A stretch of DNA of 64,000 nucleotides from Solirubrobacterales bacterium (lineage in GTDB: Bacteria; Actinomycetota; Thermoleophilia; Solirubrobacterales; 70-9): assembly GCA_036794585.1 (NCBI GenBank), contig DAIRGH010000001.1:6964-70963 (forward strand), in the 5' to 3' direction. Of this stretch, positions 18,409-24,486 are shown piece by piece (position 1 is the stretch's first letter; the number at the start of each line of letters is the position of its first letter). Below the pieces are notes generated by a model. That model was not told the DNA's origin. It did not search any database and saw nothing but the letters and a program-made list of their open reading frames with translations. The position numbers and the translations under genes were made by a program.

Positions 18409-19947
18409 CTAGGCGCCGCGGCCGTAGCCGTAGCCGTAGCCGTATTCTCGGCCCCGTTTCCGGGCCCGATTCGCCACTACACCGAGTACCGGCGCGTCAA
18501 GATTGCGAAGCTGATCGCGTAAGTGGATCGCATCGTCGCGAGTTGTTCGCCCGAGCTGGCCCACGACGATCACGCCGGTAACCAGCTTCATGACAGGAAT
18601 CGCGTCGGCCAGCACGGAAACTGGCGGGGTATCGACGATAACGAGCTCATACTCGCTCATCAATTCATCGATGAGCCGAGCCATCTCCTCGCTCTCCATT
18701 AGCTCAACTGGGTTCGGCGGCGTTGATCCAGCAGTGATGACGGCGAGCTTTCGCTCGGCGTCTGTCCCGTTTGTCCGTGATGCAACGGGGACGTACTGAG
18801 TCGCTGACTGGCGTGAGACCTGATGTGTGAGTAGCTCAGACAGGCCTGGCAGCGGGGCCAGATTGTGCCTTGCGGCGACTGTAGGCTGATGGAGATCAGC
18901 CTCCAGTAGCAGTGTGGACGTCCCGGCCTCGGCCGCGGTGCACGCCAGATTCCAGGCGACGGTGCTCTTGCCTTCACCCGGGCCGGGTGAGCTTACGAGC
19001 ACGCTGCGAACGTTGCGATCGACATTGAAGTAACGCAGTTTCGTGCGCAACATCCGGAACGCCTCCCCCTCAGCGAACGGTAGGTCACGCGTCCCTGCGT
19101 CATGGTGTCCGCCGAGGATCGTGCTGTCCGGGACCGTGCCGAGAACGGGGAAATCGAACGACGCCCCCAGTTCGTCCGAGTCTCGTAGGCGGCGATCGAG
19201 ACGCTGGCGCAGGAGCGCCAGGCCCAGTCCGAGGAAAAGACCGACCACCGCACCGAAGACAGTGTTGCGAAGCACCTTTGGCGACGAGCTCGAACGTGGA
19301 ACATCAGCCCTCTGCACCAGTTCTGCATTTCCGGTTTGCAATGCCTCAAGTGTCTTGAGGGCGCTGATCTGGTCCTGAAGCGTTTCGCCCTCCTGCCCGG
19401 TGCGCTCGGTAAGGGAGAGCCGAGCAAGATCCTGCTCCACGAGTTCACGAGACTCTGCCACCTTAGCCCGGTCTGCCTGGCGACGGAAGAGGATGTATTG
19501 CTCGACGAAGGTGTTAGCGAGCGTGGCAGCGAACCTGGGATCCGTATCGGTCGCCGTTACTGAAACCACGTCGGACTGACCCTCGGCCTCGACTTCGACC
19601 GCGTTGGAAACGTCTGTGCCCGTAAGCGGCCGGTCGAGAGCGTCGGCGGTCTGATCAGCGACGACATCAAGCGAAACCAGGTGGACGTTCGTAGCCGCTT
19701 CGCGAGCTGGATCAGCCGTGCCGACGAAGCTCGGCGCTCCAAAGACACGCTCGTCGAACCCTGGGTCGCGAAAGAGCAGCGAGGCGGTAGCCGAGTATTG
19801 CTTTTCCTGGAGCGAAGAAAACACAAACGCTGATGCCGTTACCAGGACGAAGCAGAGAACGATCAGGGCGATATGCCGGCGGAATGGGGCCAGAATCGAC
19901 CGTAGATCGGATCCCTCCGTCGAGTTGGATAATGCTCCCGCGTTCAT
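18409..19947 (-). CDS. polysaccharide co-polymerase / tyrosine autokinase (Wzc-like BY-kinase)
   Basis: N-terminal Wzz-like part with a TM segment (IALIVLCFVLVTASAFVF) and a long coiled region. Walker A is VLVSSPGPGEGKSTVAWNLA, Walker A'/B are LLLEADL and VIVDTPP, and the C-terminal Tyr cluster is EYGYGYGYG. Confidence 0.9.
   Translation of the reverse strand: MNAGALSNSTEGSDLRSILAPFRRHIALIVLCFVLVTASAFVFSSLQEKQYSATASLLFRDPGFDERVFGAPSFVGTADPAREAATNVHLVSLDVVADQTADALDRPLTGTDVSNAVEVEAEGQSDVVSVTATDTDPRFAATLANTFVEQYILFRRQADRAKVAESRELVEQDLARLSLTERTGQEGETLQDQISALKTLEALQTGNAELVQRADVPRSSSSPKVLRNTVFGAVVGLFLGLGLALLRQRLDRRLRDSDELGASFDFPVLGTVPDSTILGGHHDAGTRDLPFAEGEAFRMLRTKLRYFNVDRNVRSVLVSSPGPGEGKSTVAWNLACTAAEAGTSTLLLEADLHQPTVAARHNLAPLPGLSELLTHQVSRQSATQYVPVASRTNGTDAERKLAVITAGSTPPNPVELMESEEMARLIDELMSEYELVIVDTPPVSVLADAIPVMKLVTGVIVVGQLGRTTRDDAIHLRDQLRNLDAPVLGVVANRARKRGREYGYGYGYGRGA
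18421..18444. repeat. hexanucleotide microsatellite (GCCGTA)x4 encoding the BY-kinase Tyr cluster
   Basis: Read directly: gccgtagccgtagccgtagccgta. On the minus strand this gives YGYGYGYG. Confidence 0.9.
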
Positions 19948-20174: not shown

Positions 20175-20567
20175 TCAGACTCCCAGGCGCGCGGCTTTGT
20201 GAAGCGCGCGGATATCGCCACTACTAACGTCGCCTTCGACAACGGCTACGTGCTGCTGGCAGCCATTGAAGGTCATCCCCACGGCGAGCTTGGATGGATT
20301 CCTGAAGTCAGCGGTAAGGGCCTTGCTTCCCTGGCTGACTCCGTTGATATACAGCTCCGCTAGCGAGCTCGACGGCCTCGTCTTCAAAACCCAGAAGAAC
20401 GCACCAGTGATCCCTGTTAGCGCCCCGGGCCACGTGATGGGCAAGCCTCGCTCAGCCTCATAGAATGTGGCGTCGTCGCCCCCGGCCCGAGCGACGAGTC
20501 TCCAGGTGGGCGCGGCTTCCGGATAGACCGACTGGGAGGGATAGAGCGTCTCCGATGGAGTTGGCAT
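20175..20567 (-). CDS. hypothetical protein resembling the C-terminal half of a LamG/concanavalin-A-like domain
   Basis: AELYINGVSQGS...KLAVGMTFNG...VVEGDVSSGDIRAL resembles the distal strands of LamG domains. GAGAGG lies ~9 nt upstream of the ATG. It is in the same reading frame as the two ORFs upstream of it. Confidence 0.45.
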   Translation of the reverse strand: MPTPSETLYPSQSVYPEAAPTWRLVARAGGDDATFYEAERGLPITWPGALTGITGAFFWVLKTRPSSSLAELYINGVSQGSKALTADFRNPSKLAVGMTFNGCQQHVAVVEGDVSSGDIRALHKAARLGV

Positions 20568-20570
20568 CGA

Positions 20571-20666
20571 CTAGTGCCTCTCTGTGAGCTCGCGCGTCTG
20601 TTCCCACAGTTGTTCCATGGAAATACGCGGCCCGTCCTCCAGGTCCTCGGGAACCAGAAGGGTCAT
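20571..20666 (-). CDS. 31-codon ORF between two in-frame TAG codons
   Basis: MTLLVPEDLEDGPRISMEQLWEQTRELTERH. GGAGG lies 7 nt upstream of the ATG. The ATG directly follows the TAG of the upstream ORF. It is too short for the ORF track and coding status is uncertain. Confidence 0.25.
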   Translation of the reverse strand: MTLLVPEDLEDGPRISMEQLWEQTRELTERH

Positions 20667-21185
20667 CTAGACGCCTCCAACTAGGACATCGTCGGTCGTG
20701 GTGGAAAACCGGTGAGCGATGCCGATGAGCGTTCGCGGTTCACCCGTCGCGAACGGTGCGTATTGAGTCTGGACGCGGTCGCTTGAACCGTGGAAGTTGG
20801 TCGAGGTCTCTACAGAGCCTCCGATCATCCCACGACCGGTACCGATCATTAGACGGCCTTGAGTGGTTCCGTCGCGACCGCTACCTGAGAGATCTGAAGC
20901 TCCGTGCCTTCCCGTTAAAGGTAGCCAGAGGCCGAGACCTTCCAGCCTTGCGATGATGCGCATCAGGTTATCGGGCCGCGTCGCGAATCCCGCCGTCCCG
21001 AGGACGACCGCTCCCAGTCCCAGCACGGCGCCGCGAACCAGCAACTCCCGCCGGCAGAGCTTCGCTTTGGGGTGGGTGTATGCCGCATCGCCGAGGCCTC
21101 GCCTCGTCACGCACCTACGATAACGTGGCTTGTTCACAGCAGGGGCGTTTGCTGCCCGGCGTGAGTCACCGCCAAAATTGATCAC
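20667..21185 (-). CDS. hypothetical exported protein resembling the N-terminal half of a LamG-like domain
   Basis: Twin-arginine-like signal (CRRELLVRGAVLGLGAVVLGTAGFA). It is followed by WLPLTGRHGASDLSGSGRDGTTQG...GGSVETSTNFHGSSDRV...EPRTLIGIAHRF, which resembles the first strands of LamG domains. The start is uncertain. Confidence 0.45.
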   Translation of the reverse strand: MINFGGDSRRAANAPAVNKPRYRRCVTRRGLGDAAYTHPKAKLCRRELLVRGAVLGLGAVVLGTAGFATRPDNLMRIIARLEGLGLWLPLTGRHGASDLSGSGRDGTTQGRLMIGTGRGMIGGSVETSTNFHGSSDRVQTQYAPFATGEPRTLIGIAHRFSTTTDDVLVGGV

Positions 21186-21288
21186 GTCGCGCTCGCGAGG
21201 GCGCCATGCACTAACTGACTCTCTACACCGGGACGCAGCGGCTGAGGCCGGCAGCCCCGACGGATATCGCTTGCCAACGAAGCGGCAT

Positions 21289-21567
21289 CTAAGCCACGGG
21301 CCGCTTTCTTGGCGCCTTCGCCGGCGTGTTGAGCTGGCGCTCGGCAGTCTTGATCATCTGGGACAGCGCCGCGGGATAATCCGGCCAGGCCGCGGCCGAG
21401 ATCTTCTTCGGCGGCTGCTCGGGCAACTCCTCAACAACCTTGCCGCGATCACTGACGGCAACCAGCACGGGTTGCACGATTACGCTCGTCAGAACGACCC
21501 TTTTCTTCTTCTTCTGCCCTGGAGTCTGGTCCGTCGAACGAGATCGGTTTTTCGACCTGGTCGTCAT
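21289..21567 (-). CDS. hypothetical small basic protein
   Basis: AAGGAG lies ~9 nt upstream of the ATG at 21567, whereas the track start at 21588 lacks an RBS. Lys/Arg-rich N-terminus (MTTRSKNRSRSTDQTPGQKKKKR). No family recognised. Confidence 0.4.
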   Translation of the reverse strand: MTTRSKNRSRSTDQTPGQKKKKRVVLTSVIVQPVLVAVSDRGKVVEELPEQPPKKISAAAWPDYPAALSQMIKTAERQLNTPAKAPRKRPVA

Positions 21568-21594
21568 TTTGGTGTCGCTCCTTTGCATCAGGGA

Positions 21595-22722
21595 TTAGGC
21601 GGCTGCGTAGGCGGGGATCACGAGGACCGTCCCCGCCGAGTCCATGACCTTGAGATATAGGGTGGGCGTCGCAGGCAAAGCCGACGCGGCGCCAGCCGCG
21701 CCGACGCTGGTCTGTTTCGCAGAACCAGAAGCCCAATGGGGAATCCCGTCCCTGCGGAGGACGAAGGCGCCACCCCCCGCCTCGATTGCGGATATCGCGC
21801 GCAGGCGGTTACGTGCCCGGATCACGCCCGATTCCGGGCGGTCAAACCCGGCGTTCATATCGTTAGCAATGAAGAACAGGCCCTCGGTTTCGATGTTGTT
21901 GGCCGCGTAGAAGTTTTGGTTGACGCCGACCGTGCCCGCTGACTTGCGATCGATGACCGCGAGGGTGTCGCCCCCCAGGCGAATCGAGCCATTCGTCAAC
22001 AGCGCCAGCTTCTCGACGTCCGCGGTGGATTGAACGACGAGCGAGGGGAACGCCCCCGTGTGGTCGCCTCGCAGATGCCAGGTCCAGGTGTTGCCGTCGA
22101 GCGGGTTGATCCACATACGAGGTCCGCCGCCGTAGCTCTCGATGTTGAGAACTTTCTGCGTCGCATTGGTCGCCCCCGGCCCGAGGCCCCCGATGAGTTT
22201 GAGCACGCCCATATCGGCGTTCGGCGTGATGTTCGCGCCGATGATTGAGAAGCGATAATCCGCGTCGTCGGTGGCGATTCCCATGTAGGGGTCTTCGTCG
22301 CCGTTGTGCTTGGCGATCACGAAGTCATGCACCGTGCCGGGGGTCGGATAGTTCGACTTGAAAGCCATGATGAAATCCCGGTTTCTAACCGCAGCAGCGA
22401 CGTCGATACCCATTCCCCATTCGCCCACCGTGTCGCCATCGGTCGTGCCGCGGAAGATCAGCACCGGCGCCTGCTCGTCGGGGTGCCCGACACCTGCTAT
22501 GTCGTGAAAGATGAAGGCCGGTTCTTCGTTCTGGCCGTGGATGATAAGAGGCTGATCCTCGGCTGGGGGCTGGATCACTAGCGGCCCGGCCATTGTCGCT
22601 CCGTCCTCCCAGAAGCTGTCGGTGTAGTCCGACAGGCGGATCTCGAGGTCTTCTAGCGCCGCCGCTGAGATCGGCGTCGACTCGTCCGGGGCATCGTGCC
22701 AGTCCTTGGGTTCAAACGCCAC
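21595..22722 (-). CDS. hypothetical protein with a phage minor-tail/tail-fibre-like N-terminus
   Basis: GTG start with a strong GGAGGAGG RBS 8 nt upstream. The N-terminus (KDWHDAPDESTPISAAALEDLEIRLSDY) resembles the motif I recall at the start of actinophage minor tail proteins. The body is Gly/Asn/Thr-rich and beta-like. The tail ends ...TPTLYLKVMDSAGTVLVIPAYAAA. Coding status is likely real, but the function is speculative. Confidence 0.55.
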   Translation of the reverse strand: MAFEPKDWHDAPDESTPISAAALEDLEIRLSDYTDSFWEDGATMAGPLVIQPPAEDQPLIIHGQNEEPAFIFHDIAGVGHPDEQAPVLIFRGTTDGDTVGEWGMGIDVAAAVRNRDFIMAFKSNYPTPGTVHDFVIAKHNGDEDPYMGIATDDADYRFSIIGANITPNADMGVLKLIGGLGPGATNATQKVLNIESYGGGPRMWINPLDGNTWTWHLRGDHTGAFPSLVVQSTADVEKLALLTNGSIRLGGDTLAVIDRKSAGTVGVNQNFYAANNIETEGLFFIANDMNAGFDRPESGVIRARNRLRAISAIEAGGGAFVLRRDGIPHWASGSAKQTSVGAAGAASALPATPTLYLKVMDSAGTVLVIPAYAAA

Positions 22723-23031: not shown

Positions 23032-24486
23032 ATGGCAGGGATGACTACGGCGAGGCAGGTCTTCCCGGCGATCGCCGTAGGGGACCTGCGTATCGGATCC
23101 GTTCTGATGTGGTGCCTGGTCGCGGCCGTGGCCGTGGCCGCAGGAGCCGGTATCGCGGACGGCGGCTTGCATCTCGCGCTGATCCTCGGGATGAGCGCCA
23201 TTGGCAGCATCCTGATCGGCGCCTTTGTCTTCGAGGGTCGGGCTCTTCTCGCGTGGATTGTCCTGGCCCCTTTGGCCTATCCATTCTTGCGTTATCCACA
23301 GGCTGGCCAAGCCCTGACCTTCGACCGTGCTTTCGTTGCCATTCTCGTGGGGGTGGTCCTATTGACCGCAATCAGGGCAGTGAGGTCAGCCGAGAGCAAA
23401 CGGTTTTTTTCGGTCCTTGTCATCTTCACGATTTTCTTCGGCCTTATGGCAGCGTTCACATCAGGCGCAACAGAGCCAGCCCTCTCATCCTGGGTAAGCA
23501 GTCTCCTGGTACCTCTGGGCGCATTTTTCGTGGCGCGTGCTTACGTGACCGAGGGCGTCGGATCGCGAGCGCTTTTGGGATCTATCGCTTTAGCTGGCGC
23601 TCTCGTCGCGATAATCGGGATCGCCGAAGCTTGGCGCGGATTTGAGCTTGCCTCATTCAGTGGAAGTGCGACCACCCTCGACCCAAATATCGGTCGCATC
23701 CGCGTATCCGGTCCGTACGAGAACTCTCAGGTCTACGGGCTGGTTCTCGCTTTGTCCTTTGCGGCCGCTCTAGGTTGGCTTCAGCTAACAACTGGCCGGG
23801 CTCGGCTTATCGGTGTTCCGCTCTTGGGAACGCTCCTCCTAGGCCTCTACTATGGATACACGCGCTCGAGTTGGGCCGCGGTAGTTCTCATCTTCCTCGT
23901 GTGGTTGCTTCTGAACGTTGACCTCAGGGTGATCGTGCGAGTCGCGCTGGTGGTGATGGCCGGCCTCACCATCTTCGTAGGCGGCAAACTCCTCACTGCC
24001 AACGACGTAGCGTTCAACGAGCGCCTGTCGAACCGCGACACTGTTGAAAGCCGCCTTGCCACATACCAAAAGGGCATGTTGCTTGTCGCGGAGGCCCCGA
24101 TCTTCGGTGTAGGAATTGGGCAGTACACTGCCGCGTCCGATAGGTCTATCCATAGTCCGACGGTCGGAGGCGATCCAGCCGCAACGTCGTCCCACAGCAC
24201 GCCCCTTAACGTATTAGTCGAGCAGGGGATCGTTGGTCTCGCCGCTCTACTGTGGGTGCTCGTGGCGGCATTCGCGCTTCTTCGGAAATCCGCAACGAGC
24301 CCAAGGAAGGAGCTACGGGTTGTGGCGGTAACAACTGTGGCCGCAACCACAGGGTACGTCGCGGTAGCGCTGACCGACAGCGTGCTCACCTACGGCTCAT
24401 CGAATGCAATGGTTATGTTGCTATTCGGCTGCACCGCAGGTCTCATGGATCGCGTACATGTCGGCGCCGCGTCAGAGAGTACCTAG
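23032..24486 (+). CDS. O-antigen polymerase/ligase family membrane protein (Wzy-like)
   Basis: About 11 hydrophobic segments and a Wzy_C-type stretch LGLYYGYTRSSWAAVVLIFLVWLLL followed by a large loop. Confidence 0.8.
   Translation: MAGMTTARQVFPAIAVGDLRIGSVLMWCLVAAVAVAAGAGIADGGLHLALILGMSAIGSILIGAFVFEGRALLAWIVLAPLAYPFLRYPQAGQALTFDRAFVAILVGVVLLTAIRAVRSAESKRFFSVLVIFTIFFGLMAAFTSGATEPALSSWVSSLLVPLGAFFVARAYVTEGVGSRALLGSIALAGALVAIIGIAEAWRGFELASFSGSATTLDPNIGRIRVSGPYENSQVYGLVLALSFAAALGWLQLTTGRARLIGVPLLGTLLLGLYYGYTRSSWAAVVLIFLVWLLLNVDLRVIVRVALVVMAGLTIFVGGKLLTANDVAFNERLSNRDTVESRLATYQKGMLLVAEAPIFGVGIGQYTAASDRSIHSPTVGGDPAATSSHSTPLNVLVEQGIVGLAALLWVLVAAFALLRKSATSPRKELRVVAVTTVAATTGYVAVALTDSVLTYGSSNAMVMLLFGCTAGLMDRVHVGAASEST

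Follow-up and report, generated by a model that had tools for sequence, protein, structure and literature searches.

How is a 2.5-kb block of minus-strand genes between the tyrosine kinase (BY-kinase) and Wzy genes of a surface-polysaccharide locus to be understood: as a component of the pathway, or as DNA that came from elsewhere? The block lies at 20175-22722 of a 64,000-nucleotide (nt) stretch of a Solirubrobacterales genome (GenBank assembly GCA_036794585.1, contig DAIRGH010000001.1, positions 6,964 to 70,963 of the forward strand), the whole of which is called the window here. In the initial annotation it was described as a tight operon of five open reading frames (ORFs) with phage-tail-fibre-like and LamG-like products, and two readings were offered, namely a domesticated receptor-binding or depolymerase-type module acting on the cell's own surface glycan, and a prophage remnant. 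All five ORFs are present on the minus strand, at 21595-22722 (375 amino acids, aa), 21289-21588 (99 or 92 aa), 20667-21185 (172 aa), 20571-20666 (31 aa) and 20175-20567 (130 aa). The last three, however, proved to be one frame with two TAG codons in it, so that the cluster consists of three genes, one of them broken, and not of five; nor is it a tight operon, because only the first two genes lie close together (6-27 nt), with 103-178 nt from the second to the LamG-type frame and 227 nt from that frame to the kinase gene. We conclude that the block is probably phage DNA left behind in a polysaccharide island of low G+C, itself acquired horizontally, and not a Wzx/Wzy component; it would consist of an intact mosaic fibre gene, the small gene following it and a broken gene for a LamG-type carbohydrate-binding tail-tip protein, all taken from phage virion modules.

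A mosaic fibre protein of phage type

The first and largest gene of the block and its recognizable parts are as follows.

21595..22722, minus strand: fibre gene, 375 aa, stop codon included; intact ORF, isoelectric point (pI) 4.6, no hydrophobic signal segment
22730..22737, minus strand: Shine-Dalgarno sequence GGAGGAGG, 7 nt 5' of the GTG start of the fibre gene, read from the sequence
22615..22722, minus strand: N-terminal adaptor, residues 1-36, of the type PKDW-D-PD--TP-SAAA-EDLE-RL
21883..22470, minus strand: fibre body, residues ~85-280, with the conserved core WG-GIDVAAA--RDF--AFK--YP-PG-V-D----HNG, common to a few fibres with other termini
21598..21780, minus strand: C-terminal module, residues ~315-375, W--A--QTTVGAAGAASALPATPTKYLKV-DSAGT-LVIPAYAA, which ends the protein

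The strong ribosome-binding site that had been assigned to this ORF is thus in place, and the gene has a G+C of 0.63/0.47/0.79 at the three codon positions. Its product is a predicted phage fibre put together from three modules, each with relatives of its own. Over 36 aa, the adaptor at the N-terminus has 61% identity with a fibre encoded on the phage contig L053, and the N-terminal region is 48% identical over 71 aa to the protein P0055; both of these align from residue 1, which confirms the GTG start, and both have the N-terminal 36-70 residues in common with the window fibre and not the body. P0055 itself matches phrog_5711, 'head fiber protein', at E 1.6e-8, the window fibre matches the same family directly and weakly (residues 1-38, E 0.013), and the starts of Mycobacterium and Gordonia phage genes match the fibre N-terminus weakly as well (E 4e-3 to 0.3). 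The likeness to the start of actinophage minor tail or tail-fibre proteins that had been noticed from the letters therefore stands as far as a phage fibre is concerned, while 'minor tail' does not, the PHROG match being to a head fibre.

The body is found in a few other fibres, at an identity of 37-44%. In HMMER searches its homologues were P0054 (E 8e-43), which has another N-terminus, and P0056 (E 1.6e-18), P0057 and P0075, which have other C-termini; a copy in the Streptomyces locus L007 is 37% identical over residues 85-375 of the window fibre. Since the homologues of the body carry other termini, the fibre is a mosaic.

By far the most relatives were reached through the end of the protein. 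A word-based search of 5.8 billion proteins returned 51 relatives, all via the last 50-80 residues only, and an exhaustive HMMER search returned 558 clusters (at 50% identity) at E<=1e-3, nearly all through residues 315-375 and with E down to 1e-14 for this module. In every case the module is the end of the protein, and it is joined to very different N-terminal parts, Mtd_N-type and further classic fibre starts for example, in carriers of 79 to 1293 aa with varied N-terminal architecture (P0002-P0173). The C-end of phrog_13388, 'tail collar fiber', weakly matches residues 325-373 (E 0.003). The conserved end of phage fibres is usually the N-terminus, so that a conserved extreme C-terminus is unusual; the module may serve in trimerisation, in docking the partner or as the receptor tip. 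A monomer model of the fibre gave a pLDDT (predicted local distance difference test) of 45, with short strands only and a confident C-terminal hairpin; the C-terminal module is the only part of the model with a pLDDT of 73-87.

The fibre belongs to no Pfam or NCBIfam family and its C-terminal module to no Pfam family, and sequence and profile searches of the PDB gave nothing at E<=10. Its likeness to fibres, like the LamG likeness treated below, was detectable only via homologues and not by a direct Pfam match. No beta-helix, lyase, hydrolase or other glycan-cleaving domain was found in the 375-aa protein in Pfam, the PHROGs or the PDB, nor by a profile of the body homologues, and no export signal was found in it. 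The profile searches against fibre, tailspike and depolymerase families that had been proposed for this protein thus gave weak fibre matches at its two ends and no depolymerase match. Among isolated phages (50,697 records), neither the body nor the C-terminal module had a match at E<=1e-3, and the only matches were weak N-terminal ones.

Relatives of the fibre are encoded in phage structural modules

The phage modules that hold relatives of the block genes also encode portal, capsid, tail-completion, sheath or tube, tape-measure and endolysin proteins. Relatives of the fibre were located at 19 IMG/VR loci. On the phage contigs L005 and L006 the fibre relative is accompanied by portal, Mu-type protease, cement protein, tube, tape measure and Dit genes; on L009 by genes for a Mu-type portal, a capsid protein, a 1066-aa beta-helix protein and a tail tube; L012 and L013 have portal, cement and capsid genes, then the fibre, then Phage_tail_S; and the order on L053 is Phage_tail_S, fibre, small protein, sheath. 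The C-terminal module occurs on the phage contig L003 as well. The window protein is thus homologous to proteins of phage structural modules and has an N-terminal attachment module shared by fibres with different distal parts; the window gene itself stands outside any phage or prophage structural module, with polysaccharide genes as its neighbours.

In these phages, fibres with this N-terminus or C-terminus are encoded behind the head-completion genes and ahead of those for the tube or sheath. Such a place points to a fibre of the neck, the collar or the head, and from this gene order the window fibre was probably one of these, binding a host surface glycan. We also observed that two of the loci (L005:5777-11566 and L009:5881-13494) encode several very large proteins (497-1066 aa, one of them a beta-helix protein) together with the fibre inside or just after the head module and not at the tail tip, which suggests that Mu-portal-type phages carry capsid- or neck-borne glycan-binding appendages.

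Among cellular genomes the family is rare. In the GTDB species representatives it was found at only four loci, one of which is a phage region of an Acidimicrobiia metagenome-assembled genome (MAG), and a second a low-G+C insert in the chromosome of Streptomyces hygroscopicus ATCC 21589. There, a fibre and small-partner pair (L007:6639-8025, contig L054) has 61-63% G+C against a background of 70% and lies between a histidine-kinase/LuxR (two-component) pair with a DUF4096 transposase fragment on one side and an SLT transglycosylase gene on the other. No relative of the fibre was found in 24+16 relatives searched, in 400 genomes of the same class, in 16 of the same order, or in 38 genomes of the same genus, 32 of which have BY-kinase genes. 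Had the block been part of the pathway, its orthologues were expected always to stand next to BY-kinase or Wzy genes; they were found in phage contigs or, in Streptomyces, by a transposase fragment, and in the loci examined no homologue of any of the three block genes stands beside a BY-kinase or Wzy gene. The best BY-kinase of the same genus is 52% identical to that of the window, and in five relatives the kinase is the one gene that the BY-kinase locus has in common with the window locus. The view that none of the block genes is a standard Wzx/Wzy component agrees with this distribution.

A small gene that follows fibre genes

Directly behind the fibre gene lies the second gene of the block.

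21289..21588, minus strand: gene of the small basic partner; 99 aa, or 92 aa if translation starts at the ATG at 21567, which is preceded by AAAGGAG; belongs, as a divergent member, to the 'RLVKVIVQPVFVLDDGE' family

Its product is basic, as had been remarked, with a pI of 10.9. The ORF right after the Streptomyces fibre resembles the 99-aa ORF of the window, and a profile made from both led to 45 proteins of 60-90 aa with a nearly invariant RLVKVIVQPVFVLDDGE core. Family members stand directly 3' of fibre or tailspike genes in L011, L012/13, L053, L003/4, L007 and L008, and in L011 (8001-8195), L012 (8001-8258) and L053 (2906-3106) the stop codon of the fibre gene and the start of the partner gene overlap; the fibre-side neighbour in L011 is a 755-aa protein matching phrog_4636, 'tail spike', at E 1.8e-33. 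The small gene is thus placed immediately downstream of a fibre gene and coupled to it, as a gene for a fibre-assembly protein would be, and this position suggests that the partner may be an assembly helper or chaperone. Neither the partner nor its family members fall into a Pfam, NCBIfam or PHROG family, hence into no described chaperone family, and the L012 member had no match in the isolated-phage collection.

Within its family the window partner is the odd one out of 28 aligned sequences: four nearly invariant positions are changed (RLVKV to VLTSV, DDG to DRG), two residues are inserted, and the N-terminus carries a basic extension of ~20 residues.

A LamG-type gene interrupted by two TAG codons

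The remaining three ORFs of the block resolve into a single frame.

20175..20963, minus strand: LamG-type (concanavalin-like) remnant, one frame from Met75 (ATG at 20963) to the TGA at 20175-20177, with two TAGs
20667..20669, minus strand: first in-frame TAG, directly behind the codons of a conserved Gly-Gly within the conserved core of the LamG domain
20571..20573, minus strand: second in-frame TAG, in a segment absent from the L030 homologue
20964..21185, minus strand: upstream extension of the frame, with the Tat-like RRELLVRGAVLGLGAVVLGTAGFA; both homologues begin downstream of it

At third codon positions, the G+C signal is unbroken across both TAGs. Neither the separate pieces nor the read-through sequence gave a Pfam match above the gathering score, PF13385 searched against the genome with stops read through returned nothing even at E 10, and a word-based search with the read-through sequence found no relatives. 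An IMG/VR pattern scan with the 130-aa piece picked out one contig, L030, and a metagenome scan for the LamG gene returned this viral contig and nothing else; the isolated-phage collection had no match to the LamG homologue. On L030, a 240-aa protein encoded between the large-terminase and P22-type portal genes is a Laminin_G_3 protein (E 1.7e-11, 45 bits against a cut-off of 27.6), and BLASTP aligned the read-through sequence to it at E 2e-12, from the last part of the 172-aa ORF through the greater part of the 130-aa one. Because the alignment spans both, the proposal of a LamG-like fold split over two ORFs was right.

The second homologue is an intact 418-aa protein in G053, a genome of the same genus, whose C-terminal half is 41% identical (E 3e-14) and whose N-terminal half aligns at E 3e-5. 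Its gene follows a 1493-aa tape-measure gene and precedes genes for two large proteins and an endolysin, that is, it occupies the tail-tip position of a siphovirus prophage. When the three proteins are aligned, the middle loop is variable, being absent from L030, ~250 aa long as an insert in G053, and ~50 residues long in the window, where the extra residues contain the 31-codon ORF and the second TAG. As an observation of its own, the nested ~250-aa insert of the G053 protein (G053:C7; L056:613-1869; L057) starts with NLIPNPSFETGVSGW and occupies the same loop as the remodelled one of the window; it looks like a carbohydrate-binding module.

Both homologues lack a signal peptide and start at or just before Met75 of the window frame. 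The twin-arginine translocation (Tat)-like string, RRELLV...GFA, with a 17-aa hydrophobic stretch, lies upstream of where both begin, so the string was probably not in the ancestral protein and the description of the 172-aa product as a Tat-signal protein finds no backing in homology; there is no Shine-Dalgarno sequence ahead of either upstream GTG. A model of the read-through frame had a pLDDT of 34. Two nonsense codons interrupt the LamG-type tail-tip gene and its middle loop has been remodelled; it is now a pseudogene.

As for the codon itself, TAG ends 39% of the long ORFs biased in third-position G+C (GC3) genome-wide (TGA 52%, TAA 9%), shares that come from a crude ORF caller; a TAG share of 39% seems high for a genome of 70% G+C. 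Recoding of TAG, of the pyrrolysine type, was considered and rejected: there is no tRNA with a CUA anticodon among the 53 tRNAs, and the frame stays open beyond a TAG no more often than beyond a TAA.

Setting of the block in the genome

The two genes that border the block belong to the host's polysaccharide locus.

18409..19947, minus strand: BY-kinase (Wzc-type) gene, a polysaccharide gene of the host that begins 227 nt beyond the 3' end of the block; Pfam Wzz, GNVR and ParA/CbiA
23032..24486, plus strand: Wzy-type polymerase/ligase gene, Pfam Wzy_C E 8e-18, transcribed away from the fibre gene, with a spacer of 309 nt between the two

The kinase protein combines Wzz, GNVR and P-loop domains. 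The annotated 11-36 kb around the block hold polysaccharide genes only, for methyltransferases, a family 2 glycosyltransferase (GT2), an epimerase, a GT-C glycosyltransferase, AsnB, GT4 enzymes and Wzx, and no further phage gene was found across that stretch, as stated before. Neither integrase, portal nor tape-measure genes were found on the contig, no tRNA was found in the window, and searches for flanking repeats, tRNAs, Rfam families, terminators and promoters around the block gave nothing above chance.

The contig measures 78.6 kb and comes from a 204-contig MAG with a genomic G+C of 70.1%. Block and neighbours have 58-64% G+C, the block itself 60-63%, and the kinase, GT-C and Wzy genes next to it 0.58-0.61; GC3 is 0.79 in the fibre gene and 0.77 in the partner gene versus 0.65-0.68 in the flanking polysaccharide genes. 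If the fibre pair is expressed at all, this would be due solely to read-through or to the divergent promoter region that it shares with wzy, and the pair would have no role in the synthesis of the cell's own glycan.

Elsewhere in the genome, contig C121 (L052:1-14983) carries a siphovirus structural module with genes for a portal, a protease, an HK97-type capsid, an adaptor, a major tail protein and a tape measure with a transglycosylase, at a host-like 70% G+C. The module is cut off by the end of the contig directly behind the tape-measure gene, and therefore its tail-tip genes and fibres are unassembled; the genome thus holds at least part of a prophage. No prophage related to the block was found in the same genome, the C121 module being of another type and composition.

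Origin of the block

The reading of the block as stranded phage DNA, which we regard as probable, fits the finding that relatives of all three gene families lie in phage structural modules, that one of the three genes is broken and that the partner is divergent. Several observations weigh against it. The fibre and partner genes are full-length, their ribosome-binding site is strong and no other genes nearby have so clear a coding signature, unlike old debris; the block falls exactly between the kinase and polymerase genes and heads the minus-strand gene string; its G+C matches that of the island, with which it may therefore have travelled; an isolated fibre-partner pair occurs in two chromosomes, those of the window and of Streptomyces, which could mean retention for use; and no close orthologue of the block genes was found. 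Some of these points speak for a pair that the host keeps and makes, either in trans for a resident phage-like particle, whose choice of surface glycan it would set, or for release when cells lyse, to bind or trim the product of the adjacent locus; its place in the glycan locus would then be functional, and the module on C121 shows that phage structural genes are at hand. We nevertheless hold this to be unlikely: the pair is in none of the 38 same-genus genomes, the partner is degenerate at nearly invariant positions and the adjacent LamG gene is broken; the C121 module, with its 70% G+C and HK97-type head, is unlike the Mu-portal/capsid_4 phages of the fibre family and nothing links both; and the fibre has no export signal, beta-helix or hydrolase domain. 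That it is not set lower still is because the pair is intact, has a strong ribosome-binding site and a high GC3, and recurs as an orphan in a Streptomyces chromosome. Retention specifically as a glycan-specific adhesin, or as a trans-acting fibre arming a resident particle against cells with this polysaccharide, is a rather improbable variant; if it were true, the specificity of the fibre would be passed on together with the glycan type as a single unit. The domestication of the fibre pair is unsupported, and the earlier suggestion of a module acting on the cell's own glycan fails in that homologues are not beside BY-kinase or Wzy genes, the virion-attachment N-terminus is kept and no export signal is present.

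The shared base composition can also be taken to mean that the block arrived together with the left part of the island, which is lowest in G+C, both belonging to a single mobile element with the block at its end, such as a prophage with glycan-conversion genes beside its fibre genes. P22-like phages have gtrABC beside the tailspike gene, and here a set of GT2, polytopic protein and GT-C genes lies 2-7 kb from a block that has the same G+C (0.60-0.63) as its kinase, GT-C and Wzy neighbours and not the 0.70 of the genome. In that event fibre and glycan genes would share a history and not a pathway. We consider this quite unlikely as well, as the GT-C protein had no tblastn match in the 50,697 phage records, no integrase, tRNA or flanking repeat was found, the GC3 of the fibre gene (0.79) departs from that of the glycan genes, and BY-kinase and Wzy are ordinary genes of a host locus; a P22-gtr-like, lysogenic-conversion origin of the GT2 and GT-C genes in particular is unsupported, given the missing GT-C match. 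Very improbable is a LamG-type gene that is still alive, giving an exported Tat-dependent lectin by translational coupling of its pieces or by read-through. It could appeal to the TAG-ATG and TAG-TCG-ATG junctions with GGAGG and GAGAGG upstream, to the unbroken coding signature and to the twin-arginine-like string followed by a hydrophobic stretch; but the GGAGG before the next ATG is merely the two codons of the conserved Gly-Gly, the first TAG lies inside the beta-sandwich core, which would make the pieces half-domains, no suppressor tRNA accompanies a TAG that is a frequent ordinary stop, and the starts of the homologues and the missing Shine-Dalgarno sequences speak against the signal. Least credible of all is an assembly artefact by which phage reads were joined into a bacterial MAG contig. 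The genome is in 204 contigs and all relatives of the block are phage-borne; yet the block lies 20 kb inside a contig of 78.6 kb and has the same G+C as both flanks, only three of the dozens of genes expected from a phage contig are there, and the genome of a Streptomyces isolate has the same kind of isolated pair.

Comparison with known systems

If the block is stranded phage DNA, a candidate new component of the polysaccharide pathway is removed, and the annotation of its genes should read phage fibre, small protein associated with a fibre, and LamG-domain pseudogene. Two large families that are undescribed in Pfam, NCBIfam and the PHROGs come into view with it, the C-terminal fibre module (>500 clusters) and the small post-fibre protein. 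Both seem to be parts of fibres of the neck or collar type in uncultured phages that infect high-G+C bacteria, and the C-terminal module together with the 'VIVQPVFVLDDGE' small protein may be an undescribed, widespread fibre-assembly system of these phages.

Among described families, PHROG 5711, of cluster E-type Mycobacterium and Gordonia phages, is alike in the N-terminal 36-60 aa, a weak match confined to the terminus; its member Murphy gp19 has 157 aa, and its gene is flanked by those for major tail and chaperone proteins. PHROG 13388, 'tail collar fiber protein', is weakly alike in the last 50 aa. With the carbohydrate-binding modules of the Laminin_G_3 type (PF13385) at phage tail tips, both halves of the LamG-type remnant align, and the window copy differs in being interrupted and in having no direct Pfam match. 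Tailspikes and depolymerases are comparable in their receptor-binding role in phages and in the link to capsule or extracellular polysaccharide, and L009 encodes its 1066-aa beta-helix protein next to its fibre; the 375-aa fibre of the window, in contrast, is small for a depolymerase, has ~100 aa of its length in terminal modules and matches no beta-helix, lyase or hydrolase.

A parallel in arrangement comes from the cryptic prophages of Escherichia coli K-12, which keep pairs of side-tail-fibre and assembly genes, stfR/tfaR in Rac, stfE/tfaE in e14 and stfQ/tfaQ in Qin. The window pair has no sequence relation to these, has no other prophage gene nearby and sits in a polysaccharide locus, whereas both cases would be alike in that a fibre gene and the small gene following it have outlasted the phage while the neighbouring phage genes are broken.

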